DNA of 38,533 nucleotides, taken from IMG/VR virus record IMGVR_UViG_2531839666_000019; one strand, given 5' to 3'. A program made the position numbers and the translations under genes. The notes beneath the pieces are model-generated. The model had not been told where the DNA came from. It ran no database searches and was given only the letters and a program-made list of their open reading frames with translations. Positions 1-29,985 of this stretch are shown piece by piece. Each line of letters starts with the position of its first letter. Positions within the stretch are counted from its first letter, which is position 1. The DNA comes from a virus (taxonomy: Duplodnaviria > Heunggongvirae > Uroviricota > Caudoviricetes).

Positions 1-405
1 TCATTGGTTTACTCCCACGTTAATTGCCGCCATTGCGCTTTGAGCAATATCCATGTCTTGTTCAACGCTACCGCCGCTGATGCCAAGCCCGCCAAGCAAT
101 TTTCCGTCACGCCAGAGGGGGAAGCCGCCACCAAAAGTGACGACTTTGCCTTGCATATGGCTTTCGAGCCCGTAAAGCGGCGCGCCGGGTTGCACGGTAT
201 CAGCAAGTTTGTGGGTTGCCGTTTTCATCGCCACGGCGGTCCAGGCTTTTTTCGGTGCCAGTTCACTGCTGACCAACAGGGCATCAGGCATCCGCCAGGT
301 AACACTTTCTGTTCCGTTGGCATCAACAATGCTGATGACAACGGGATGATGCGCCGCGCGATAAATGTACCAATTTCCGTGAGATAAATTACATCGCTGC
401 GGCAT
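1..405 (-). CDS. GlcG/DUF336-family (heme-binding-like) protein; flanking host gene or terminal cargo
   Basis: 134-aa ORF with motif FGGGFPLWRDGKLLGGLGISGGSVEQDMDIAQSA typical of GlcG/DUF336; stop codon is at bases 1-3 and ATG at 405. Confidence 0.55.
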   Translation of the reverse strand: MPQRCNLSHGNWYIYRAAHHPVVISIVDANGTESVTWRMPDALLVSSELAPKKAWTAVAMKTATHKLADTVQPGAPLYGLESHMQGKVVTFGGGFPLWRDGKLLGGLGISGGSVEQDMDIAQSAMAAINVGVNQ

Positions 406-424
406 TTCAATATCTGAAAAAGAA

Positions 425-997
425 TTACAACTTAGCTTGAGTTTGGAGTTCCTCTACAGGGTGATAACGATAAATCGTCGATATACCGATATCGTAAATA
501 ATTGCCAACTGTTTCCTGCTATAGCCATTTTTGATCAGCCTTGCTATTTGTTCATGTTGCTCTTTTGTCAGTTTCGGACGGCGTCCGCCAATACGCCCCT
601 GTGCACGTGCTGCCTCAAGTCCGGCCAGTGTTCGTTCAACTATTAATTCGCGCTCCATTTCCGCTAAAGCCCCCATGACGTGAAAAAAGAAACGTCCCAT
701 GGGTGTTGACGTATCAATGCTGTCTGTAAGACTACGGAAATTAACCCCTTTTCCCCGCAGTTCCTCAATAAGAGTGATAAGGTGTTTCATGCTTCTGCCC
801 AGCCTATCCAGCTTCCAGACAACGAGCGTATCTCCTTCTGATAACGTTCTGAGCAGCTTTTTCAATCCCGGTCGGGCTGACTTTGTTCCGCTGATTTTAT
901 CCTCAAAAATCAGTTCACATCCTGCGCAGTTCAGTGCGTTTCGTTGTAAATCTGTATTCTGGTCATTTGTTGACACACGAATGTAGCCAATTTGCAT
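425..997 (-). CDS. serine recombinase, DNA invertase of the Gin/Pin/Hin/Cin family
   Basis: Protein begins MQIGYIRVSTNDQNTDLQRNAL (catalytic Ser in the YIRVST motif), has a resolvase core and C-terminal HTH, and is very close in pattern to phage Mu Gin; start trimmed from ORF-track 1192 to the ATG at 997. Confidence 0.9.
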   Translation of the reverse strand: MQIGYIRVSTNDQNTDLQRNALNCAGCELIFEDKISGTKSARPGLKKLLRTLSEGDTLVVWKLDRLGRSMKHLITLIEELRGKGVNFRSLTDSIDTSTPMGRFFFHVMGALAEMERELIVERTLAGLEAARAQGRIGGRRPKLTKEQHEQIARLIKNGYSRKQLAIIYDIGISTIYRYHPVEELQTQAKL

Positions 998-1051
998 GAA
1001 AAATATCCTCTTTGTTTTGTTAAAAATACATAGCTGGTATAGGTGGGAGTT

Positions 1052-1079
1052 AAGACGAAAACGTTGGTTTGGGGGAAGG
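1052..1079 (+). other. gix/hix-like crossover site A (variable left half, TT core at 1064-1065, conserved right half GGTTTGGGGGAAGG)
   Basis: Sequence GACGAAAACG-TT-GGTTTGGGGGAAGG matches the AAACC-NN-GGTTT architecture of Gin/Hin sites; the same right half recurs at sites B, C and, inverted, D. Confidence 0.7.
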
Positions 1080-1530
1080 CTCTGCACTACCTGTTGGTGT
1101 GCCTGTTCCGTGGCCGTCAGCCACACCGCCAGCAGGGTGGCTGAAATGTAACGGCGCAGCATTTTCTTCTGAAATGTACCCCAGGCTGGCAAAGGCTTAT
1201 CCGACCAATAAATTACCGGATTTACGGGGCGAATTTATCCGTGGCTGGGATGACGGACGAGGTATTGATGCAGGACGAGAGATACTTTCATTTCAGGAAG
1301 GCACTATCGTCTCCGGTTTTGATGATAATGATACTGGGGATATCAGTTCACTCAGCTCAACACAATACGGATTTGGTGACACTTTAACCTCTAATCAATG
1401 GGGGGCCATAAATGGCAAAAAGTGGATATTTGATGCATCCAGTAAAGGTGCCCAAAAATATGACTGGTGGGCTTATGTATCAGCTCGTCCGCGTAATATT
1501 GCATTTAATTACATCGTAAGAGCGGCATAG
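1066..1530 (+). CDS. silent alternative tail-fibre C-terminal cassette A (no ATG start; expressed only after inversion)
   Basis: Begins GEGSALPVGVPVPWPSATPPAGWLKCNGAAF, the same sequence that follows site D in the expressed tail fibre; ends with conserved RPRNIAFNYIVRAA; ORF-track start is TTG inside the gix site. Confidence 0.75.
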   Translation, partial: GLGEGSALPVGVPVPWPSATPPAGWLKCNGAAFSSEMYPRLAKAYPTNKLPDLRGEFIRGWDDGRGIDAGREILSFQEGTIVSGFDDNDTGDISSLSSTQYGFGDTLTSNQWGAINGKKWIFDASSKGAQKYDWWAYVSARPRNIAFNYIVRAA

Positions 1531-1551
1531 AAACGTTGGTTTGGGGGAAGG
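1524..1551 (+). other. gix/hix-like crossover site B
   Basis: ATAGAAACG-TT-GGTTTGGGGGAAGG, core at 1536-1537, immediately after the stop codon of cassette A. Confidence 0.7.
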
Positions 1552-1969
1552 CTCTGCACTGCCCGTTGGTGTGCCTGTTCCGTGGCCCTCAGCCACACCG
1601 CCAACAGGCTGGCTGAAATGTAACGGTGCAGTATTTTCTGCTGGGAAGTACCCCAAACTGGCACAGGCTTACCCCACCAATAAATTACCGGATTTACGGG
1701 GCGAATTTATTCGTGGCTGGGATGATGGACGTGGAGTGGACAATGGGCGAGCATTATTAAGCAGGCAGGAGGCTACAAATTTTTCTTATTACGGAGGTAA
1801 TTTCGATATTGGGTCTGGTCATTCAATCAATAACTATGACCAAATCGTTGACAACCAACCTGGATTCTCCCGTTTTTCATTTGCAGGTCCTTCGCGAGGC
1901 GATGGGGTTAATTTTGTGACCATTCGTCCTCGTAATATTGCGTTTAATTACATCGTAAGGGCAGCATGA
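1538..1969 (+). CDS. silent alternative tail-fibre C-terminal cassette B
   Basis: Same conserved N-terminal block and C-terminal RPRNIAFNYIVRAA with a different central region; starts in gix site B. Confidence 0.75.
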   Translation, partial: GLGEGSALPVGVPVPWPSATPPTGWLKCNGAVFSAGKYPKLAQAYPTNKLPDLRGEFIRGWDDGRGVDNGRALLSRQEATNFSYYGGNFDIGSGHSINNYDQIVDNQPGFSRFSFAGPSRGDGVNFVTIRPRNIAFNYIVRAA

Positions 1970-1990
1970 AAACGTTGGTTTGGGGGAAGG
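1963..1990 (+). other. gix/hix-like crossover site C
   Basis: CATGAAAACG-TT-GGTTTGGGGGAAGG, core at 1975-1976, immediately after the stop codon of cassette B. Confidence 0.7.
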
Positions 1991-2483
1991 CTCTGCACTA
2001 CCTGTTGGTGTGCCTGTTCCGTGGCCGTCAGCCACACCGCCAGCAGGGTGGCTGAAATGTAACGGCGCAGCATTTTCTTCTGAAATGTACCCCTGGCTGG
2101 CAAAGGCTTATCCGACCAATAAATTACCGGATTTACGGGGCGAATTTATCCGTGGCTGGGATGACGGACGGGGAATTGATTCAGGGCGTTTCTTGCTTAA
2201 TGCACAACCACATTCGGTTATGGATCATACTCACTATATGGAGTTATGGACCGGTGAAGGGCTTGCTGCAAACAGCACCCGTGCAGGAACAAACCCTGGT
2301 ATACTGGCTACATACGGTGATGGCGGGATTGTTAAAACAGATGAGTCAGGTGTAAAAGTTCCATCTTCACTACGTGCTATTGGCACTCGTGGTGTTTATA
2401 GATTAGGTGCCAACGGAGGGAATACAGGAACGGAAAACCGCCCCCGTAATATTGCGTTTAACTATATTGTAAGGGCTACTTAA
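1977..2483 (+). CDS. silent alternative tail-fibre C-terminal cassette C
   Basis: Same conserved block (about 125 bp identical to the expressed copy) and C-terminal motif; stop overlaps the tfa start (TAATG at 2481-2485). Confidence 0.75.
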   Translation, partial: GLGEGSALPVGVPVPWPSATPPAGWLKCNGAAFSSEMYPWLAKAYPTNKLPDLRGEFIRGWDDGRGIDSGRFLLNAQPHSVMDHTHYMELWTGEGLAANSTRAGTNPGILATYGDGGIVKTDESGVKVPSSLRAIGTRGVYRLGANGGNTGTENRPRNIAFNYIVRAT

Positions 2484-3100
2484 TGAATAATGCTGCTGCA
2501 GTACTTGATCAGAATGGTATCGCTATAACTGCAGGCGATATTACCGTTTATAACTACGATGCTGAAAACCGTGAATATCTCTCTGCCACTGTTGAATATC
2601 TCGCTTATGGTGTTGGAATTCCGGCTCACTCATGCATTGACGCGCCACCAGAAAAACGCCCCGGCTTCGCTGTCTGTCGTGATACCGACCAGAACATCTG
2701 GAAATATGTTCCAGACCACAGAGGCGAAACGGTTTACAGCACAGAGAATGGTAACGCTGTGCAAATCACACAGCCGGGAGATTACCCTTCAGATACGACG
2801 GTGAAACAGCCAGCTACCATCTATGATGTCTGGGATGGTGAGACCTGGGTGACAGATACGAGACGACAGCACGCAGCAGAACTGGAAGCTGCCGGAGCGC
2901 ATCGTCAGCAACTTGAGGAACAGGCAATGGCATCTGTTGAGCTTATTAATCTCAAACTACGAGCCGGACGCCGATTGACGCCCCAGGAGACGGAAAAACT
3001 AAACGCCGTGCTTGATTTCATAGATGCGCTTAATGCGACTGACATCAGCACTGCACCGGATATCAACTGGCCGGAAATGCCTCTGGCAGCAGCCAGTTGA
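2483..3100 (+). CDS. tail fibre assembly protein (Tfa/U-like chaperone)
   Basis: 205-aa protein with the typical Tfa N-terminal region; lies directly downstream of cassette C and converges on the expressed tail fibre. Confidence 0.75.
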   Translation: MNNAAAVLDQNGIAITAGDITVYNYDAENREYLSATVEYLAYGVGIPAHSCIDAPPEKRPGFAVCRDTDQNIWKYVPDHRGETVYSTENGNAVQITQPGDYPSDTTVKQPATIYDVWDGETWVTDTRRQHAAELEAAGAHRQQLEEQAMASVELINLKLRAGRRLTPQETEKLNAVLDFIDALNATDISTAPDINWPEMPLAAAS

Positions 3101-3106
3101 GTATAA

Positions 3107-4075
3107 TTAAGCCGCCCTCACGATATAGTTAAATGCAATATTGCGGGGGCGAGTTTCACTACCACCAGTGTTACCAATACTTCCTCGTGAATGAAGCGTT
3201 GGTGATGGAATCAAACTCCCTCCTGTATTTGCAGCATCAAGTCCCCGGCCTTGTGAATATGTTTTTTTGAAAATTGTGGCCAACTCCCATTCATCCTTTG
3301 TGTCATACCCATCGTTAGCTACAACAATATGGCGGTGTTTTTCCAGCATCCCAGTTTGAAAGCTCAATAAAGCACGTCCTGCATCAATCCCTCGCCCGTC
3401 ATCCCAGCCACGGATAAATTCGCCCCGTAAATCCGGTAATTTATTGGTCGGATAAGCCTTTGCCAGCCAGGGGTACATTTCAGAAGAAAATGCTGCGCCG
3501 TTACATTTCAGCCACCCTGCTGGTGGTGTTGCTGAGGGCCACGGAACGGGCACACCAACGGGCAGCGCAGAGCCTTCCCCCAAACCAAGGTTTTTGACAA
3601 ACAGCGCAGGATCAGGAATATCTGCGCCGTTCTGGTCTTTAGCCAGCTTTTCCGCCAGCTTGTTCAGTACCGTAGTCGCAAAGTTTGGATCATTACCGAG
3701 AGCGTCAGCCAGCTCTTTAAGCGTATCCAGTGTCTCAGGGGCGCTGCCTGCAAGCGCCGCAAGTGCTTTGGCCACAAACTCCGTCGTCGCCAGCTTTTTG
3801 CTGTTATCGCCATTTGCAGGTGTAGGTGCTGTTGGTGTGCCGGTGAATGCCGGACTGGCTTTCGGTGCATACTGGGCATGCGGGTCTGCTGCCGCGATGT
3901 GTTTCGCAAGGTCAGCCCCGCCTTTTTCAACCTGTTGCTTCAGGTACAGCGTGCGGCTGGCCAGTTGTTTACCCTGACGGTTAGAAATTCCGTCAGGCCC
4001 GCCCAGAACGGGGTCAGAGACCTCAATCTGGTAGATGCCGTCTTCCCACTGTGGGGTTTCAGGTAGATTTGCCAT
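3107..4075 (-). CDS. tail fibre protein (constant N-terminal part plus currently expressed variable C-terminal cassette D, 3107-3586)
   Basis: 322-aa protein; N-terminal tail-fibre region followed after site D by the GEGSALPVGV block and the RPRNIAFNYIVRAA terminus. Confidence 0.85.
   Translation of the reverse strand: MANLPETPQWEDGIYQIEVSDPVLGGPDGISNRQGKQLASRTLYLKQQVEKGGADLAKHIAAADPHAQYAPKASPAFTGTPTAPTPANGDNSKKLATTEFVAKALAALAGSAPETLDTLKELADALGNDPNFATTVLNKLAEKLAKDQNGADIPDPALFVKNLGLGEGSALPVGVPVPWPSATPPAGWLKCNGAAFSSEMYPWLAKAYPTNKLPDLRGEFIRGWDDGRGIDAGRALLSFQTGMLEKHRHIVVANDGYDTKDEWELATIFKKTYSQGRGLDAANTGGSLIPSPTLHSRGSIGNTGGSETRPRNIAFNYIVRAA
3573..3600 (-). other. gix/hix-like crossover site D, inverted relative to A-C, inside the expressed tail-fibre gene
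   Basis: Plus strand reads CCTTCCCCCAAACC-AA-GGTTTTTGACAA, a near-palindrome resembling hixL; core at 3587-3588; encodes FVKNLGLGEG of the tail fibre. Confidence 0.75.
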
Positions 4076-6161: not shown

Positions 6162-7037
6162 TTAAATTACGAAAACCTTGACGATAAGTTCTCCGTCTTT
6201 AGAAACTCTCTTCCCCTCAAGATCAGATTTCAGCCCCTCAGAATTAGTAATAAGCTGGTTCGGATCGTAGATGACACACCAGAGATTTTTGCAATCAGAG
6301 TGCCGACGATAATGCTCTATATCGATAATAAGTTCATCGCCGATTTTCTTTGCATGAGAACGATCACGAACAATTTTGGTTTCCAGTACTAATTTATGCG
6401 CAGGTAACAAAAAATCCATTCGAGTACTTGAACCAGCGTAACTTGGAGTAAACTCTTCTGGGCGGATGTCCTGAACCCATGGTCTGAGCAATGCATGGAG
6501 AAGGTCTTGCACGTCATATTCATTGCTAAAAGATAATGACTGGCTTCCTTTTCGCCTATGAGTAAGTGGATGCATTGCTCGCTGTAAGCCTTTGACCAGC
6601 CTTTCCAGTAAGTTCTCAACTTTTTCTGGCATTACTGGCTGTTGATAAGTAATTATGGTCTCTGGGTAATCCATATTGTGTGACGGGATGTGGCCTTCAG
6701 GCAACACTCGACCAAAACGATAATATCTAAGTCCATTCTCTTGTAACACAGCTTCAATTCTGTCTCGTTTTTCCTTCCATTCTGCATATTCGGGAGTACC
6801 TTCTTTTGGAGGTAAATCCATAAACTCCTCAATTACTCCGCCCAGAACTGCCAGACTATCTGTATCTGGATCTTGCCCTGCAAGAAATAACCAGTCTTTC
6901 CATTTTGTACTATGAGATCCTGCCGGAGGGTTTCCTGGTGCTCCCGAAGTAAGAAATAACGTATCTAAAGCTGCATGAGAGCCTGAGTTAGCAATGACAT
7001 CGCCAACTACTTTACATAAGGATCTTGATAACCGCAT
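6162..7037 (-). CDS. inserted accessory gene in the baseplate block; candidate PD-(D/E)xK-fold nuclease-like protein
   Basis: 291-aa ORF, visibly AT-richer than flanking genes, flanked by 71-bp and 81-bp spacers; C-terminal region contains D-x11-E-x-K (MDFLLPAHKLVLETKIV). Confidence 0.5.
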   Translation of the reverse strand: MRLSRSLCKVVGDVIANSGSHAALDTLFLTSGAPGNPPAGSHSTKWKDWLFLAGQDPDTDSLAVLGGVIEEFMDLPPKEGTPEYAEWKEKRDRIEAVLQENGLRYYRFGRVLPEGHIPSHNMDYPETIITYQQPVMPEKVENLLERLVKGLQRAMHPLTHRRKGSQSLSFSNEYDVQDLLHALLRPWVQDIRPEEFTPSYAGSSTRMDFLLPAHKLVLETKIVRDRSHAKKIGDELIIDIEHYRRHSDCKNLWCVIYDPNQLITNSEGLKSDLEGKRVSKDGELIVKVFVI

Positions 7038-8985: not shown

Positions 8986-9866
8986 ACACTCCTCGTCAGT
9001 ATTCTGGCGGCCATTGCACTTAATCCCGGAGACATGCGGTTGAATGCTGTGCCGGCGGCGTTAAGCTGCCCGGAAACGGTATCCAGAGCACCTGCAATAT
9101 TTCTTTTGTCCACACCACTCAGCGCCGACTGCGCCTGCTGTACATACGTGGCTGCCTCACTGGCTGTTCTGGCCAGACTGATGGCATCGGGCATGGATTC
9201 AGAGAGTACATTAAACGCCGGAATACTTTTCCCCAGAGCGCCGGATATATTACCCAGTCCGCTCATCAGTCCCGGCACACGGGTCAGCGCGACAACGGGG
9301 TTACCCTTCATTTTCTGCGCCACCCGAACGGCACTGATGGTGGTCTGGAGTACAGACTGCGCCTGTTTCGCATAGTTGACGCCGTTACGGACGAACTGCG
9401 CCACCCCGGAAGGCGATGGAACAGCACCAGATATGGCCCCGGCACCGGGAACCTGCCTGCGTATTGCCGGCGGTTGCAGAGGATTTTTCGGGTCACCGGT
9501 GTATTCCCGGAGAGACACGGTGGCACTGACAGCCAGCACGTTACCGGTGCTGTCTGTCTGCTCGCTGGTTGCGGTCACATCGGTAATCACGAACCAGCCG
9601 CGATAGTCACCGTTGCCGAAGACCAGCGCCAGTGCCTGATGGGCCTTCATGGCAGTTCGCACTCTCGCCAGCTCCACGTCGGGCACACAATAATGCTGAT
9701 GGAAGACCAGGCTTATCTGGATTTCGTCCAGCCTGTCGCCGACGAACTGCAGGCCGGGTTTACCCTCGATGCGGGCATGCTCCGCATAATCGACGCCAAA
9801 CGTGGCCTCGAAGCCGTCCCAGTAGGTAATCAGTTCAAACTCAATATCACCCAGTACGGCAAACAT
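8982..9866 (-). CDS. tail protein, Mu gp43-like (DNA circularisation protein N-terminal family)
   Basis: 294-aa ORF directly downstream of the tape measure gene. Confidence 0.6.
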   Translation of the reverse strand: MFAVLGDIEFELITYWDGFEATFGVDYAEHARIEGKPGLQFVGDRLDEIQISLVFHQHYCVPDVELARVRTAMKAHQALALVFGNGDYRGWFVITDVTATSEQTDSTGNVLAVSATVSLREYTGDPKNPLQPPAIRRQVPGAGAISGAVPSPSGVAQFVRNGVNYAKQAQSVLQTTISAVRVAQKMKGNPVVALTRVPGLMSGLGNISGALGKSIPAFNVLSESMPDAISLARTASEAATYVQQAQSALSGVDKRNIAGALDTVSGQLNAAGTAFNRMSPGLSAMAARILTRSV

Positions 9867-12332
9867 CAGCTGTACTCCTTACGTTGTTTCTGAGCCAGCA
9901 GACGCTCCAGCATTTTTTCCAGCTCATGCAGGCTCATATTCAGGGCACCAGCCAGCCCGGCAGGCGCTGCGGTTTCCTTACCATTGAGGAAAAACTGAGG
10001 ATTAAAGCTGACCTGGATACCGCCAGACGCTCCACCGCCGGTTGCAGTTGCGCCACGGCCTGAATATCCGGCAGCCATGATTTCCGGCGACGGGATACGG
10101 GGAACATCCGGTGTCATTTCAGCGGCCAGGCGCTGCCCGGCCAGTGCAGCAAGCGGAGTGGTCCGTTGCAGGCCAATGGCGGCACCCTGCGCGATATTGT
10201 CACCAAAGCCTATAAACACGCGACTCGGTGAATGGATGCCCAGCTTTTCGCTGAACCAGTCACTGATGCTGTCACCCATTCCGGTTATGCTGGTTTTCAG
10301 TGACGCCCATTTGTTTCTGATGCCATTTATCAGCCCGTCAATAAGATGACCACCGAAGTCGGTGAATTTCGCCGGCAAATCAACGCCGAGATATTTCAGC
10401 GCAGCCGCAAAGGCTTTATAAAGCAGACCTGCCGGAGACCAGTTAACCAGCAGTTTACCAATTCCCGCGATGCCGCCGTTAAAGGCTTCCTGAATGTCAG
10501 CCCAGCGCTGTTTAAACCAGCTACTGACAGCGCCCCAGTTGCGGTAGATAAGGTAAGCTGCTGCCGCGACGGCGGTGATAACGAGACCGATGGGATTCAT
10601 CAGCAGCGCCCGGCCAATCCAGAGAACGGCACGCCCGGCGCTCATAATTCCGCGAACCAGCCCCCCTGAGAGCACCCCCCCACGTCGTTCTGGTTCCTCT
10701 GGCGACGGCACCAAAGCCTGTCACCAGCCAGCGGAGTTTACCGCCTTCCCCCAGTGCGAGCATCAGACGAAGCCAGTTGGCCCGAAGTAAAACAGCATTT
10801 TTCCAGACGCTTACAAAGGGGGAAATAAGGAGATTCAGCCCAAACTTGAGACCGATAGTGGCCATCCTGAAAGCGAGTAATGCGCCCACAACCTTTATGG
10901 TGCTGCTGACGAGCTGCGGATTTGCCGCTATCCATTTGCCGACGCTGTCCATTAAAGGAATAAATGTTTCACCCAACTGGAGCAAAGCCGGACGCAAGGA
11001 TTGCCCGATGCTGATAGCAGAATCATTAAAGCCGATCTGCATTCTGCGCCAGCGACCTTCAAGCGTATCATTCTGCTTTGCAGCATCCTTATCCAGGGTA
11101 GACATTGCAGCCGGAGCATTCATTTCCTGCTTACTGGAAAGGTATTTATCCCAGCCCTGTCGCATTGACAGTAAATGGTTGACAGTCTGAATATCGGTAA
11201 AGACCTCAGCCAGACCAAATGACTCCATGAGTTTCTGCTGACCTTCCTGATCGCCTCTTGCTCCTGCAGCTTTCCATTGCTGCAAAAACGCTTTGCCTTT
11301 ACTGTCGATAAAACGGTTGGCAATCATCAGTGAAGCTTCGTACTGCGAAAAACCCTGAGCGACGTAATTCTGCATTGACCCCTGGTAATCCACCCCGGCT
11401 TTAGCATATTTCTGGATGGTATCTCCGCGGCCCATTGCTGCCAGCCAGTTGGACATATTGGTGACCGCTTCCTCTGCAGAGCCACTACCTTTACCGACCT
11501 CCAGACTGGCAACAATCTGGGTAATCGCATCTTTTCCATAAATACCACGAGCAGCGAAGGCTTTCGCCATACCGGGTAATGCTTTTGCCATATCCTTCAG
11601 CTCAAATGACCCAAGTTTGGCTCCTGTTGCCGCAATGCCAAACGCCTGTTCAAGTTCTTTCGCATCAGTGATTCTGAGTGCATCGCTGAAGGCATAAGTC
11701 ATTTTGGCAAGGTCGGTCATATCGGCTTTGGTTGCTGTAGCGGTCTTTCCAAGCATCTCTGCAAACGTTGCTGCCCGTTCGGGGGCCATACCATCAGCAA
11801 CTAATTGTCCGACTCCCCCTAACAGAGACTCCTGCAGTTGGTTAACCTTCAGCGAGGCCTGTCTGATAGCCAGGCCAATTGCACGTTCCTGTTTTGCATC
11901 CAGGTCTCCTGTGACACTGATATCCCGCAACTGTGATTCAAACGAGGCATATTGTTTAACCGAGGCCATGACCGGTGCGCCCAGCGTTCTGCCAATAGCA
12001 TAGGTTTCTGCACCCTGACCATAGAGCGCCAGGCGGTTAGCCTTCAACGCATCACCGGTGGCTGATACTGCTGACAGACGGCGCTGCTGACGTTCAATTT
12101 GCTCCATGGTGCGGCTTACCCGCAGCAACTCGCTGTTGAGATGCTGCATCCGGGAAGAACCCAGTTGACCATAACGTTCTGTTGCCCGGGTTAAGGCATT
12201 CTGGCGTTCCTGCAGACGGCGGGAGGTATCACCAAGGGAATCAAGGGCGCGTCGGGTGCCACTGACGGCTGAGCGGAAGCTGCTCCCGACAATGCCGCCA
12301 ATAATGACGCCGACTGAAAATTCACTGGCCAC
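9866..12332 (-). CDS. tail tape measure protein, reading frame broken within 10661-10681 (two ORFs 10521-12332 and 9866-10714)
   Basis: 603-aa plus 282-aa overlapping ORFs; coiled-coil-rich N part and hydrophobic segment LVRGIMSAGRAVLWIGRALLMNPIGLVITAVAAAAYLIY; removing one G from the G7 run (or the adjacent G6 run) joins the frames. Confidence 0.8.
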
Positions 12333-20233: not shown

Positions 20234-21727
20234 TCAGCCGTTGTCACGCTCATGCAGACGCCCCCAGATATTTGCCACAAAGAGAATGCGGGCCAGCCGC
20301 TCCTGCAGATCGTCCGTGTTCATCTGAGGGTAGAGCTCCGCCAGTTCGCCCAGCAGCTCAGACGGGTTAACCCCGTTTTCGACCCGCCTGAACAGAGGTG
20401 CCAGGACGGGTTCCAGCGTGCCATTTAACACACCTCCGTTCATCAGAATGTCCAGCGCGTCGTCAAGCTGCTGTTGTGCATCATGATCGGCGCTTATCGC
20501 CTCGGCAAACTCCGCAGGCACTGCCCCGTCCGCAACCGGTGCATCAGAGAGGTCAATATCCCCCTCCTGCAGCTGGTACTCCCGCATGAAGTACTGCGGG
20601 GTCAGGCGTAGTCCCGCGCGGGTGAGTTTTTCGTCGCGGGTGGCACGGGTGTCATCAATGGCCTCCTGTTCCCACATGGCCCAGACCGGACACGGCACAT
20701 CGCCGAAGTTCAGGGTGACCACCGTTCTGATGACCTGATTCACTGCCGCCTGAATGATGTCCGCATCCGCATCGCGGATATCAGCCGTCACCTCCAGCCC
20801 GGCCTGTGCAGAGGCCTTGTTACTGTTCGCTTCCGTGGTCTGATTCTGACCGAGTAATGCAATGGAGATCTCACTGCGTGACAGCGTGATCAGCTCGCGG
20901 AATACCTCGCTGCTGTCCGCCTTGCCATCCGCGGCTTTGAGTTCAATGCTGCTGTCATCGGGGATGGCGGCCACAGCGTCCTCCACCATCTGCTCCATGG
21001 AGTCCAGCAGTTTTTCAATCTCTGCATCATTTGCACCCCTCGGGTGCTTACCGATCACCCACGGGGAGCCAAACTTTTCGGCAAAGCGGAGCCAGAATTT
21101 CATCCCGCCTTTCTTGAAGGCGACCGGCCAGAAGCACATGGACAGGTCCGGGAAACCGTAAGGATTGTCATACGAGGCATCCTGTGCCGGCACCACGAAT
21201 TTTGACGGTGACAGCAGCTCACCCTCCACACCCGCATCACGCGCCCGGAAGCGCAGGCAGTTGTCCGTATCAAACTGAAACCACTCAGGCGGTTTGCCGA
21301 CAATATCCGTCACCGCCCACGCCCTGACCGAACGGCCCCACATGATTTCACAGGGCTGATACCCGTAGAGCACGGCATCGCTCATCTCACCGATGATGCG
21401 GGACAGATCCAGATCGTCGAGCATGTCGCGGATGAAACGGAAGACCCGGGCAGAAGCGTGACCGCGCTCCAGTCCACGCTCCAGCGATTTGAGCGCTGCT
21501 TTACGTCTGCGGATACAGCCTCCGACCAGCGGGTCGGTGCGCAGTTCGCGGTAGATACGGATATCCCGTCCCTGAGCCTTGAGAATGGGATCAGGATTGG
21601 GCAGATACATGCCCAGTCCGTAAAAGTCGATCGCGCGGCTGCGGGAGGCAATCTGCGCGGTCAGTGATTTCTGAGGCTCAGAAAAAGCAACAAATTCATC
21701 GGGTGAAACCCAGATACCCCTCGCCAT
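20234..21727 (-). CDS. portal protein (Mu gp29-like, DUF935-like)
   Basis: 497-aa ORF directly after the terminase large subunit, typical size. Confidence 0.8.
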   Translation of the reverse strand: MARGIWVSPDEFVAFSEPQKSLTAQIASRSRAIDFYGLGMYLPNPDPILKAQGRDIRIYRELRTDPLVGGCIRRRKAALKSLERGLERGHASARVFRFIRDMLDDLDLSRIIGEMSDAVLYGYQPCEIMWGRSVRAWAVTDIVGKPPEWFQFDTDNCLRFRARDAGVEGELLSPSKFVVPAQDASYDNPYGFPDLSMCFWPVAFKKGGMKFWLRFAEKFGSPWVIGKHPRGANDAEIEKLLDSMEQMVEDAVAAIPDDSSIELKAADGKADSSEVFRELITLSRSEISIALLGQNQTTEANSNKASAQAGLEVTADIRDADADIIQAAVNQVIRTVVTLNFGDVPCPVWAMWEQEAIDDTRATRDEKLTRAGLRLTPQYFMREYQLQEGDIDLSDAPVADGAVPAEFAEAISADHDAQQQLDDALDILMNGGVLNGTLEPVLAPLFRRVENGVNPSELLGELAELYPQMNTDDLQERLARILFVANIWGRLHERDNG

Positions 21728-23321
21728 CAGAATCCCTCCAGCATACGGGCCGCCTGACGACGACGGCGTGAGCTTGCCTTCACCGGCCCTTTGTTAATTT
21801 CACGGCTGGCGAAATACGCCAGCGCCAGTGCGATGGCTGAATCCCCGTGGCGTTTACCACCGTCAGCCTTTGCTTTTGAGCGTTGCTCCGGTACGCGGGG
21901 GACACCGTTCACCACCTGAACGGCCCGCAGGTCATCCAGTGTGTCTTCATCCTTTGGTAAGTCCACCAGGTTACCGTCTTCCAGTGCAGCTTTGACCGGA
22001 GGCATATGCTCCCTGTACCAGCCTTCGGTTGGCATCACCTGCTGAATCCGGCTGGAGCCGTAGCGCTGCATGGCGTATTCAGCCAGATAGGCACCATTAC
22101 CACGGGCATCAAACGCTGCACCCAGCAGACCGGGCAGGCCATCCATCAGATACCAGGTGATTTGCTCCTGCTGTCTGAACGGCACGTTACGCAGCTCCAG
22201 TACGAATGGCACGCGTCGTACCAGGTTCTTCTCCTGCAGCAGGGGATAGTCCACCGACAAATCACCGCTACGGCCAAAGTCGCGCCCCAGGAAAGAGCGG
22301 GCATCAGTGGGGAGTGCCTCCAGCAATGGTTTCAGATACTCATCAAGCCAGTCCTGCGTCTCGCGGAAGCGAACCTCATCAGACAGCAGTTCATAACCTT
22401 CCTTGCAGGTCAGACGCAATACCGGCGTATCAGCGGACATGCGGGACTCTATCAGGGCACGGGACAGCCAGGCACCGCCACCGTTGGCCGGAATACAGTC
22501 AAGCTCTTCGGATGCGCCGGCACCGTAGAATTTGTACACCGATGCCATCCAGGCCTGCTCGGAGGCCTCCGACCATTCCTTCCCGGTGCGCAGACAGACG
22601 CGCCGGAACAGCCCCTCAGATACGGCTTCCCGGAAAGTGATGCGATGTATGCTGCCTCCCTGACGTCCGGCACGGATATCCCCGATAAGCGTATTGAACG
22701 GATTGTCGTCACCGTTATGGGTGGAGATAACGTGTACCTTCCCCCCCAGATAAGCATCGCCAGCGCCGCTTTCAGCAGTTCGTCCAGTTGCTCATGGAAC
22801 GCCGCTTCGTCGATAACAATAATACCCTGACGGCCACGCAGGTTAGACGGGCGGCTGGAGAGCGCAACAATACGAAAGCCGGAGTCAGGAAATTTGATGG
22901 TGTAAGTCCTGATGTGTTTGTCGTCGTCGTCCTCTTCCCAGAATCCTTCTTCAATTTCACTGGCCGCATAGTTGAATGCCCGTGCCCACATCGCACACGC
23001 CTGAATGTATTCGACGGTCATGTCTTGGTTATAAGCGATGTAATACACATTCATCCCGCCTGCTGGCGCAGAAGAGGCGGCGGTCAGTACGTTATCGGAT
23101 GCCTCAGCCCATGTAATACCGGTACGACGGCTCTTTTCTATCACCTTAAGCGGAGAGGTGTCTGCCACCCAGCGCTGCTGGTAAGGCAACAGAACGGGAG
23201 GGGCATCCAGCGCCGAGGTATCAGGCAAAACGGGAGCAAGGTTATTCCTCCCGTCCATGGGACTCATCCCTTCGGGGCCGCCGCCAGCGGCGTTTAAAAT
23301 CACTCCGGATGATTTTGTCAT
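21727..23321 (-). CDS. terminase large subunit (Mu gp28-like), frame broken at a G7 run (plus-strand C7 at 22741-22747)
   Basis: Two overlapping ORFs (22452-23321 and 21727-22548); adding one G to the run gives a continuous protein of about 531 aa through WGGKVHVISTHNGDDNPFNTLIGDIRAGRQGGSIHRITF. Confidence 0.8.
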
Positions 23322-27561: not shown

Positions 27562-28173
27562 TCAAAAATCTGGAGAAGGTATATCTATCTGACCGACGTT
27601 TCGTAACCACATCTCTTGCTTTGTTTCTTTATTGGTTCGGGCGATATCATTAGCATTGTATCTGCATGTTTTAACCGCAACCTCACGAACTCGTGCTATA
27701 GGAGTATTTGTGTAGAATTTAAGATCTTCCTCTACCGCTCGTATGGCGATAAGCCCTCCACTCTGAAAACCGCTGGTTACTTTTAAAAGATCAACTCCTT
27801 GGTTATAAACGGCATTACATACGTTAGGGAACTCATCTTCTACAGTTTTGGGGATCATCAGCATATCAGGAAGACCCTGTAACACGTTATCTTCCTTTGG
27901 CCTCCATGCCCTTCCCAAAAAAGCTGTTATAGGTTGTGGTGTAGAAAGAAATGCCAATTCTATATAAAACAAACCACTGTAGTGATCGCGTAACGAATAG
28001 ACTAGTAAATGATCTTTTCCAGTTTTACTTGCATTGCTAAGTTTTATATCAAATGGTTTTTTCTGGTACTTAAGCAATCCATCAACTCCCGCATAATAAT
28101 GCTTTGAAACAGCAACAGAAAGTTGATGTACTTGGTTCGGATAATCTGTTCTATATCGTTTAATTAGCCCCAT
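27562..28173 (-). CDS. hypothetical protein, AT-rich cargo gene
   Basis: 203-aa ORF, visibly AT-richer than the phage backbone; no recognisable motif. Confidence 0.5.
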   Translation of the reverse strand: MGLIKRYRTDYPNQVHQLSVAVSKHYYAGVDGLLKYQKKPFDIKLSNASKTGKDHLLVYSLRDHYSGLFYIELAFLSTPQPITAFLGRAWRPKEDNVLQGLPDMLMIPKTVEDEFPNVCNAVYNQGVDLLKVTSGFQSGGLIAIRAVEEDLKFYTNTPIARVREVAVKTCRYNANDIARTNKETKQEMWLRNVGQIDIPSPDF

Positions 28174-28232
28174 AATAGCCTCGCAGTTATTTTCTATTTC
28201 AAAATATAACGATATTTACTATCTGGAGTGTT

Positions 28233-28269
28233 TTGTTGGTCAAGTAATAGAGCTCTACATGGGGCGGTC
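28233..28269. repeat. 37-bp direct repeat, left copy flanking IS1
   Basis: TTGTTGGTCAAGTAATAGAGCTCTACATGGGGCGGTC, identical to 29038-29074. Confidence 0.9.
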
Positions 28270-28284
28270 GGTAATGACTCCAAC

Positions 28285-28788
28285 TTATTGATAGTGTTTT
28301 ATGTTCAGATAATGCCCGATGACTTTGTCATGCAGCTCCACCGATTTTGAGAACGACAGCGACTTCCGTCCCAGCCGTGCCAGGTGCTGCCTCAGATTCA
28401 GGTTATGCCGCTCAATTCGCTGCGTATATCGCTTGCTGATTACGTGCAGCTTTCCCTTCAGGCGGGATTCATACAGCGGCCAGCCATCCGTCATCCATAT
28501 CACCACGTCAAAGGGTGACAGCAGGCTCATAAGACGCCCCAGCGTCGCCATAGTGCGTTCACCGAATACGTGCGCAACAACCGTCTTCCGGAGCCTGTCA
28601 TACGCGTAAAACAGCCAGCGCTGGCGCGATTTAGCCCCGACATAGCCCCACTGTTCGTCCATTTCAGCGCAGACAATCACATCACTGCCCGGCTGTATGC
28701 GCGAAGTTACCGACTGCGGCCTGAGTTTTTTAAGTGACGTAAAGTCGTGTTGAGGCCAACGCCCATAATGCGGGCTGTTGCCCGGCAT
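28285..28788 (-). CDS. insB: IS1 InsB (transposase reading frame, normally expressed as InsAB by frameshift)
   Basis: 167-aa ORF matching IS1 InsB. Confidence 0.9.
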
Positions 28789-28982
28789 CCAACGCCATTC
28801 ATGGCCATATCAATGATTTTCTGGTACGTACCGGGTTGAGAAGCGGTGTAAGTGAACTGCAGTTGCCATGTTTTACGGCAGTGAGAGCAGAGATAGCGCT
28901 GATGTCCGGCGGTGCTTTTGCCGTTACGCACCACCCCGTCAGTAGCTGAACAGGAGGGACAGCTGATAGAAACAGAAGCCAC
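28707..28982 (-). CDS. insA: IS1 InsA
   Basis: 91-aa protein [40 protein letters not shown]. Confidence 0.95.
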
Positions 28983-29010
28983 TGGAGCACCTCAAAAACA
29001 CCATCATACA

Positions 29011-29985
29011 CTAAATCAGTAAGTTGGCAGCATCACCTTGTTGGTCAAGTAATAGAGCTCTACATGGGGCGGTCAAAACACGGGCATAACGACCATCGGG
29101 GTTTATGTTGATGTAACAAGTTTTCCCTTTAACACCATAAGATTCAGGTATTATTGCCTGTGTAGACACCGTGAATTTAAGGGTATGCCAGCCCGATTTT
29201 TGCTTGTAGCTTGAAACCGAATGGAAATCATCTGAGTACTTATTTAACCCTGGAAACATGCTGCGTAATGCTGGGATGGAATCTTCTATTATTTTGTCGT
29301 TGGTTTTAATGTTAAAAACGCTGGTTTCAGTAGATGCTACTGCTTTAGCATTTCCCCATTTACCAGCGAACACAATCATTCCCACGAAAAATATTGCGAC
29401 AAGAACTAACGCTCCCCCCAACACTACTACATGAGGCTTCCGGCTTCTGGTTGGTACAGTCGCGACTGATTTTGCCCCGCTGTCCGATGGAGGTGATAGA
29501 GTTTTACTCTCATCACGAATATTCAGCAGATCATCAAAATAACCAAACACAGCCTGCAACTGCTCTTTGTCCAGGCCTTTAAGATGGGTTGTACCGAAAT
29601 GCTTCAGACAGTATCTGTCACGGTCAAGACGATACCTAGGGTCAGTAAGCACCATTATTTTGCTGACCAGAAGATTACAGTCCTTCATATTCTGGATCTG
29701 TTGTGCATATCTCTGGAGGATCTCAACCGCACCATGATAATCAGCCGCAGTCATTTCATTAACTGTTTTGGTATTAAGTTTCGTGTGGATCGTCATCCAT
29801 AGTTCGCGCTTACTTTCCCCCAGATCAACCAATTCATCCATCAATCTGTGTAAATCGCGTTTTTGCAGCAACGAAATTGGTTGCTGGGCAGAGGGAAGTA
29901 TGTCAGCAGAATAGTTATGAATGGTAACATCACCGCTGACAACGTTACCCACATCTCCGTTAACTGTTTGCTTCTCTTTACTCAT
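29011..29985 (-). CDS. single-pass membrane protein co-transcribed with the repressor; 3' end replaced by IS1 sequence
   Basis: 324-aa ORF; N-terminal GDVGNVVSGDVTIHNY motif, TM helix VVVLGGALVLVAIFFVGMIVFAG; last 8 codons and stop lie inside IS1; without IS1 the frame would continue leftward to a stop near 28194. Confidence 0.6.
   Translation of the reverse strand: MSKEKQTVNGDVGNVVSGDVTIHNYSADILPSAQQPISLLQKRDLHRLMDELVDLGESKRELWMTIHTKLNTKTVNEMTAADYHGAVEILQRYAQQIQNMKDCNLLVSKIMVLTDPRYRLDRDRYCLKHFGTTHLKGLDKEQLQAVFGYFDDLLNIRDESKTLSPPSDSGAKSVATVPTRSRKPHVVVLGGALVLVAIFFVGMIVFAGKWGNAKAVASTETSVFNIKTNDKIIEDSIPALRSMFPGLNKYSDDFHSVSSYKQKSGWHTLKFTVSTQAIIPESYGVKGKTCYININPDGRYARVLTAPCRALLLDQQGDAANLLI
29038..29074. 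repeat. 37-bp direct repeat, right copy flanking IS1
   Basis: Identical to 28233-28269. Confidence 0.9.

Follow-up and report, generated by a model that had tools for sequence, protein, structure and literature searches.

How does an IS1 element, whose insertion normally leaves a short duplication of its target, come to stand between two perfect 37-bp copies of the same sequence? The question is raised by a virus record of 38,533 nucleotides (IMG/VR record IMGVR_UViG_2531839666_000019, Caudoviricetes; the whole stretch is called the window here), which holds a Mu-like transposable prophage lying in the pduO gene of Escherichia coli. Near the 3' end of one prophage gene, next to the repressor gene, there is a complete copy of the insertion sequence (IS) IS1. 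An earlier note on this DNA had described a 768-bp IS1 at 28270-29037 between identical 37-bp copies, and both the coordinates and the description proved correct. The note had offered three readings of the repeat (an atypical transposition, insertion into a duplication that already existed, and an assembly artefact) and had proposed a comparison with IS1-free alleles. That comparison shows a single 37-mer in every allele without IS1 that was read at base level: target DNA that had been single-copy was duplicated together with the insertion. As for how so long a duplication formed, the evidence leans toward one aberrant IS1 transposition, and we weigh it below against four other origins.

Repeat, element and empty site

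The perfect 37-bp direct repeat, TTGTTGGTCAAGTAATAGAGCTCTACATGGGGCGGTC, occupies 28233-28269 and 29038-29074. It and the element between its copies comprise the following features.

28233-28269, no strand: left copy of the 37-bp target duplication, a perfect match to 29038-29074; single copy in the empty-site alleles read at base level
28248-28257, no strand: 10-bp palindrome TAGAGCTCTA, positions 16-25 of the 37-mer; second copy at 29053-29062
28270-29037, genes on the minus strand: complete IS1 (IS1A type), 768 bp, with the end of its right inverted repeat (IRR) at 28270 and that of its left inverted repeat (IRL) at 29037
28270-28292, plus strand: terminal inverted repeat IRR, GGTAATGACTCCAACTTATTGAT, from the comparison of the inverted repeats
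28285-28788, minus strand: insB' frame, an open reading frame (ORF) of 167 amino acids (aa), fused to insA by a -1 frameshift to give InsAB'
28707-28982, minus strand: insA, 91 aa, intact, carrying a private I80T change (nucleotide 28744)
29015-29037, minus strand: terminal inverted repeat IRL, GGTGATGCTGCCAACTTACTGAT on the minus strand, from the same comparison
29038-29074, no strand: right copy of the 37-bp target duplication; its junction is also found in draft contig RRFJ01000037.1

The ends of the IS1 are intact and abut the 37-mers exactly, with unambiguous boundaries. IRR (left, beginning GGTAATGACTCC) and IRL (right, on the minus strand, beginning GGTGATGCTGCC) match at 18 of 23 positions, the A6C frameshift motif is intact at 28725-28731 (IS1 position 307), and the sole difference between the reconstructed InsAB' (232 aa) and that of the copy in strain NU14 is I80T. 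The best matches among 5426 complete E. coli genomes are 99.7% identical (2 mismatches) and are annotated as IS1A family (e.g., in UTI89 and NU14). Thus, in its length of ~768 bp, its imperfect inverted repeats of ~23 bp, its A6C frameshift and its high identity to known copies, the element is like canonical IS1 (transposed by the DDE transposase InsAB') in every structural respect; the event differs, having produced a duplication of 37 bp rather than 8-10 bp. Duplication length is a property of the insertion event and not of the element, and the element remains an IS1. The closest isoform copies have no flanking repeat at either and are uninformative on duplication length.

Two substitutions are private to this copy. 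Neither (window positions 28744 and 28705) occurs in any of ~74,900 IS1 places in the 5426 genomes, and all 54 distinct IS1 variants that we compared differ from the window copy at these same two positions. The first, T294C in IRL-to-IRR numbering, causes I80T in the helix-turn-helix (HTH) recognition helix of InsA and InsAB' (GLNT[I>T]LRHLK), 13 nt upstream of A6C; the exact InsA sequence with I80T is found in no record anywhere. The second, C333T, is silent in InsAB' and lies 2 nt past the insA stop. Consensus error is one possible source of the two changes; if they are instead genuine, they might conceivably have a bearing on the unusual duplication.

The state of the site before the insertion can be read from many genomes. 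Once IS1 and one 37-mer are removed, a stretch of 1096 bp matches some two dozen complete E. coli chromosomes at 100% identity; two of these carry the same prophage at the same pduO site. In strain 503025 the 37-mer occurs once, and a single 37-mer is present in one further allele (L002) and in each of six alleles sampled from draft assemblies. The complete genomes of JNEC-KY202 and CFIAFB20190167 have the prophage at the identical pduO position, in a single copy, and over 34-36 kilobases (kb) their identity to the window, less IS1 and one 37-mer, is 99.96%. What remains is a handful of substitutions and single-base indels, together with the invertible tail-fibre segment; outside that segment, these sister prophages differ structurally from the window in IS1 plus 37 bp and in nothing else. 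Because the same-site sisters have one 37-mer, the immediate ancestor had one as well. Within the window, a search that allowed up to 3 mismatches found no third copy of the 37-mer (chance expectation 0).

Since every IS1-free allele read at base level has one 37-mer, the idea in the earlier note that IS1 entered a pre-existing duplication is refuted. In its narrowest form, with IS1 inserted exactly between the copies of a tandem 37-bp duplication already present in the immediate ancestor, this idea is a formal possibility that we find hardly credible: not only do all these alleles, the two same-site sister prophages among them, hold one copy, but the insertion would have had to make no duplication of its own and to fall exactly at the repeat boundary.

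The insertion is recent, rare and confined to one lineage. None of the 5426 complete E. coli genomes has an IS1 in this 1.9-kb region, and the filled site is in no complete E. coli genome and no phage record. The ORF across the junction of the prophage with pduO (1-405, minus strand) occurs in 405 blocks of the collection, which marks the lysogen lineage as common; the chimeric gene created by IS1 was found on one contig.

Duplication lengths and a probable long stagger

According to the literature, IS1 duplicates 8 or 9 bp (PMC12903888) or 8-10 bp (PMC3031569) of its target. For a comparison on the same terms as the window, we collected IS1-bearing loci from viral and genome collections and measured the repeat abutting each complete copy, which gave 76 distinct sites. 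The abutting repeat was 9 bp long at 19 of them, 8 bp at 8 and 10 bp at 2 (8-10 bp at 29/76 sites altogether); repeats of 3-5 bp, probably due to chance, were seen at 4 sites, and 43 sites had no abutting repeat. No site had a repeat of 11 bp or more (0/76), so the earlier note was right to place 37 bp outside the usual IS1 range.

Longer IS1 duplications have been seen in the laboratory. Sheng et al. 2023 (Table S7; PMC10359306), who trapped several hundred insertions in cas genes, list duplications of 7, 11 and 23 bp, with the 23-bp length seen in three samples of a single plate. At 37 bp, the duplication in the window has four times the normal length and exceeds every IS1 case that we found in print (the longest being 23 bp); it is possibly the longest recorded. 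The lengths 9, 23 and 37 bp are spaced by 14, which with n = 2 is so far numerology. It is a non-canonical IS1 target duplication in a natural isolate, with a precedent in kind. Iida et al. reportedly described a 14-bp IS1 duplication in 1985. The laboratory strain DH10B carries recA1. The hosts of the trap experiments were DH10B and MG1655-delta-recA (PMC10359306); as both are RecA-deficient, a long IS1 duplication can arise without homologous recombination.

We infer that the long stagger originated in one step. The explanation that we consider probable, if well short of certain, is a single aberrant IS1 transposition in which the two strand transfers took place 37 bp apart. An IS1A-type copy would have inserted into the 3' end of the prophage gene with its two 3' ends joined to opposite target strands at this distance, instead of 8-10 bp, and host repair synthesis would then have filled the two 37-nt single-stranded gaps, leaving a perfect 37-bp direct repeat. 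We prefer a version in which the strand transfers are uncoupled or only loosely coupled: after the first joining the target would be flexible at the nick, and the second end could then attack the other strand at a non-canonical distance. Such an event would lie at the far end of the variation in duplication length already known for IS1 (7-11 and 23 bp). Of the alternatives in the earlier note, atypical transposition is therefore the one now favored, with the 23-bp duplication as its precedent.

A number of points weigh against this origin. We know of no structural model in which one transpososome reaches phosphates 37 bp apart, and one sequence cannot separate a one-step from a multi-step origin. 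With no repeat of such length at any surveyed site, an event of this kind is at best a rare outcome. A hairpin or cruciform was rejected as the target structure, because the sequence folds no better than its shuffles (z = -0.48), and so was a U-turn induced by integration host factor (IHF) that would bring the cut sites together, because there is no IHF-like site within the 37-mer; in the flanks, 2 weak IHF-like matches were found vs 3.7 expected. The remaining points concern the junctions. The left junction alone separates a 37-bp from a 9-bp duplication: it reads GGGGCGGTC|GGTAATG in the first case and TTGTTGGTC|GGTAATG in the second (in longer form, ...CATGGGGCGGTC|GGTAATGACTCC for 37 bp, where 9 bp would give ...GTTTTGTTGGTC|GGTAATGACTCC). 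This junction is seen only in the window. Its 31-mer is absent from the genome-contig and viral-contig collections, a degenerate pattern for it is absent from metagenome contigs, and the 40-aa ORF that runs across it matches no record. The right junction would look identical with a 9-bp insertion at TTGTTGGTC.

The 37-mer does contain the palindrome to which the earlier note drew attention. TAGAGCTCTA sits 1.5 bp off the center of the 37-mer; such a palindrome occurs in 2.2% of 37-bp windows of the prophage, and centered within 2 bp in 0.3%. The motif is found nowhere else in the window, and its role as a recurring operator was rejected. In the empty site, an 8-bp inverted repeat, GTGTTTTG...CAAAACAC (window 28228-28235 and 29074-29081), straddles both IS1 cut sites and encloses TAGAGCTCTA almost concentrically, which makes the target quasi-symmetric. 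This symmetry was noticed post hoc and serves as a lead only. A bolder idea, which we regard as doubtful, is that in nature the IS1 transpososome needs a single step to join its ends to strands lying several helical turns from each other, and that it does so where the target has two-fold symmetry; were that true, the insertion would be a natural intermediate on a continuum that leads from 9-bp duplications to IS-centered duplications of kilobases. A further possibility is that I80T, in the DNA-recognition helix of InsA and InsAB', loosens the geometry of transposition.

Junctions and other origins

A 37-bp repeat could also be assembled from two ordinary events. Suppose that two homologous copies of the locus each received an IS1, both elements pointing the same way and 28 bp separating the two sites, with 9-bp duplications TTGTTGGTC and GGGGCGGTC; homologous recombination within IS1 could then have produced a single element with its left flank from one insertion and its right flank from the other. 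The arithmetic fits (28 + 9 = 37 bp), and both putative 9-mers end in GGTC; the right junction in the independent draft contig fits a 9-bp "site A" allele equally, and recombination between IS copies is well documented as altering flanking repeats (PMC11708052). However, the chimeric proteins expected of a site-B insertion, with duplications of 8, 9 or 10 bp, are absent from ~15 billion proteins, among which both the wild type and the real chimera were found, and the complete E. coli genomes, as noted above, lack IS1 in this region. Two rare hits within 28 bp and an exchange between different molecules would be required, and a lineage so poor in IS1 is unlikely to have been hit twice independently at a distance of 28 bp: the sister genomes have ~3 and 0 chromosomal IS1 matches, and one prophage copy only. 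The 23-bp IS1 duplication, furthermore, arose in RecA-deficient hosts (PMC10359306). A recombinant origin of the IS1 copy itself was rejected, because both of its differences from the nearest isoform are private and it is no mosaic of known isoforms; as evidence against two insertions this is weak, since two identical copies would leave no trace. This explanation, a fourth beyond those in the earlier note, found no support when tested, and we consider it unlikely, if worth keeping in view.

The junctions bear also on the possibility of an assembly artefact, namely, that only 9 bp were really duplicated and that an assembler or finisher, in bridging the repeated IS1, added the other 28 bp at the left junction. 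On the one hand, the window has private single-base indels at C/T homopolymers, typical of error-prone read chemistry, as well as the two IS1 substitutions seen in no other copy; taken together, these mean that the quality of its consensus is imperfect. The left junction has no confirmation elsewhere, and the draft contig with the right junction stops 79 bp inside IS1, so IS1 must be repeated in that genome. On the other hand, the extra 28 bp stop precisely where IRR begins, and reads with this junction must exist; neither homopolymer errors nor the collapse of repeats yields a perfect templated insertion of 28 bp. Errors of De Bruijn or overlap assembly would be expected to duplicate the k-mers of contig ends side by side rather than on the two flanks of a repeat.

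The right junction is better attested. The 324-aa chimeric protein that it encodes occurs on one contig among 153 billion gene positions (RRFJ01000037.1, assembly GCA_005045715.1), where 9575/9575 bases match the window, so that the right junction and 9.5 kb of flank are present base for base in a second assembly. The protein has a second, older GenBank accession, EII24331.1; with two independent accessions for the chimera, this junction has been assembled at least twice. It is absent from metagenome contigs and viral contigs. The suspicion of an artefact voiced in the earlier note is thus weakened by the right junction and left standing at the left one, and we give it a small probability.

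The homopolymer indels lie at about 10682, 22740 and 27373 of the window, as judged against the two sister prophages at the same site. Those at about 10682 and 22740 interrupt the tape-measure gene (ORFs 9866-10714 and 10521-12332) and a terminase-like gene (21727-22548 and 22452-23321), respectively. They are either errors of sequencing chemistry or real decay of the prophage.

Finally, the stagger may not have been chosen by the transposase. IS1 could have been captured at a staggered break or replication fork that was already there, or its ends could have been joined to two sister duplexes offset by 37 bp. In the work of Ngan et al. (2024), a large duplication had a newly arrived IS between its two copies, for which the authors proposed insertion at breaks already present (PMC11708052), and the topology (duplicated segment, IS, duplicated segment) is the same here. 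Their cases, however, involve IS481 and IS5 and rearrangements on a kilobase scale, with no target duplication. The site bears no sequence mark of a break or fork, and sequence alone cannot tell such a capture from a transposition with widely spaced strand transfers; to capture we assign a slim chance.

Other long duplications offer partial parallels to the aberrant transposition that we favor. IS1634 and IS1549 are likewise DDE-type elements flanked by target duplications far longer than a helical turn; these are variable, from 8 to 514 bp, and no model of their mechanism has been put forward (PMC2266710). Their transposases belong to another family (the IS4-related IS1634 family), to which the InsAB' of the window is unrelated, and long variable repeats are the rule for them, whereas for IS1, with its other copies flanked by 8-10 bp or by no repeat, they are a rare exception. 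The IS481 event of Ngan et al. in Pseudomonas fluorescens SBW25 shares the topology, a new IS between direct copies of an ancestral single-copy segment; there, 61,222 bp of DNA were gained in what seems to be a single event, and a conventional target duplication is absent (PMC11708052). The insertion in the window, at 37 bp, is far from this kilobase scale, and the IS family is also different. The "insertion with long target duplication" of restriction-modification units (Nobusato et al. 2000; Furuta et al. 2010) is similar in its long variable duplications and in being deduced from empty sites, but these units, from Helicobacter and Neisseria, have no transposase and no terminal inverted repeats, and their presumed mechanism is another.

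If the 37-bp duplication is real, it is the longest documented IS1 target duplication that we found and a natural example rather than one from a laboratory trap, and it would support a non-rigid spacing of the two strand transfers made by the IS1 transposase. It would bear, too, on how IS elements end up at the center of larger duplications. In practical terms, screens that look for 8- or 9-bp repeats only, such as the screen of natural insertions in PMC10359306, would class copies of this kind as duplication-free. Deletion frequency depends on repeat length, and a 37-bp repeat should therefore raise precise excision relative to 9 bp and make the insertion more reversible.

The interrupted gene and its prophage

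The gene in which IS1 landed and its neighbors are given below.

27562-28173, minus strand: downstream 203-aa gene, separated from the repressor operon by IS1; in 2855 blocks of the collection
29011-29985, minus strand: disrupted prophage gene, now a 324-aa chimera (316 native residues and 8 from IS1) in place of the wild-type WP_000031885.1 of 328 aa
29982-30443, minus strand: HTH repressor-like gene of the Mu-like prophage, adjoining the disrupted gene on its upstream side

IS1 replaces the 12 native C-terminal codons (NTPDSKYRYILK) with GDAANLLI and so shortens the protein from 328 to 324 aa; the earlier note had counted the 8 IS1 codons correctly and put the native loss at about 11. WP_000031885.1 has a predicted transmembrane segment, and its gene overlaps the stop of the repressor gene. 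Neither Pfam nor PADLOC gave any hit for the disrupted gene or the 203-aa gene; in the neighborhood, Pfam hits were limited to DUF2441 and the repressor HTH, and PADLOC had none. The downstream 203-aa and DUF2441 genes share the direction of transcription of IS1, and the element may have a polar effect, perhaps partial, on these two genes. Together with the loss of 12 C-terminal residues, this possible polarity would probably have a small effect on the biology of the prophage.

Other lineages have lost more of the same protein. In 34 contigs from other E. coli lineages (e.g., GCA_949813105.1, 495-1073), the gene is truncated to 192 aa (ending ...VVLGEC; protein P0005), from which it follows that the gene is probably dispensable for the lysogen. 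In a divergent allele (P0013, WP_269412752.1), the partial protein runs to the end of its contig and stops exactly at ...RVLTAP, the counterpart of the GGGGCGGTC end of the 37-mer, and another partial protein (P0011) ends 11 codons earlier. The ends of these two proteins could mark a repeat or mosaic boundary in another variant of the prophage.

That the window is a Mu-like transposable prophage is evident from its gene set, as judged by annotation and Pfam: the HTH repressor, a Ner-like protein, a DDE transposase, a MuB-like ExeA/AAA protein, Gam and Mor are all present, the ends are TG...CA, and a short duplication of host DNA flanks them. P2-like tail genes and the invertible tail-fibre segment complete the picture. 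Positions 1-346 are the 3' part of E. coli pduO, a gene of the propanediol-utilization operon, whose 5' part lies just past the right end of the window, and the host duplication consists of 6-8 bp of pduO, CAACGGGA (window 1-352; L252 37890-37897). In other strains, the same prophage occupies other chromosomal sites.

The invertible tail-fibre region extends over 425-3600 and comprises a gene for a Gin-like serine recombinase (425-997, minus strand), a tail-fibre assembly gene and alternative C-terminal cassettes of the tail fibre at 1069-1530, 1541-1969 and 1980-2483. The segment is oriented differently in JNEC-KY202 and in the window, and many draft assemblies break there. The tail module also has, between its baseplate genes, a gene with a PD-(D/E)XK nuclease domain (6162-7037, minus strand; Pfam DpnII-MboI in a related contig), perhaps a moron or cargo of the defence type.

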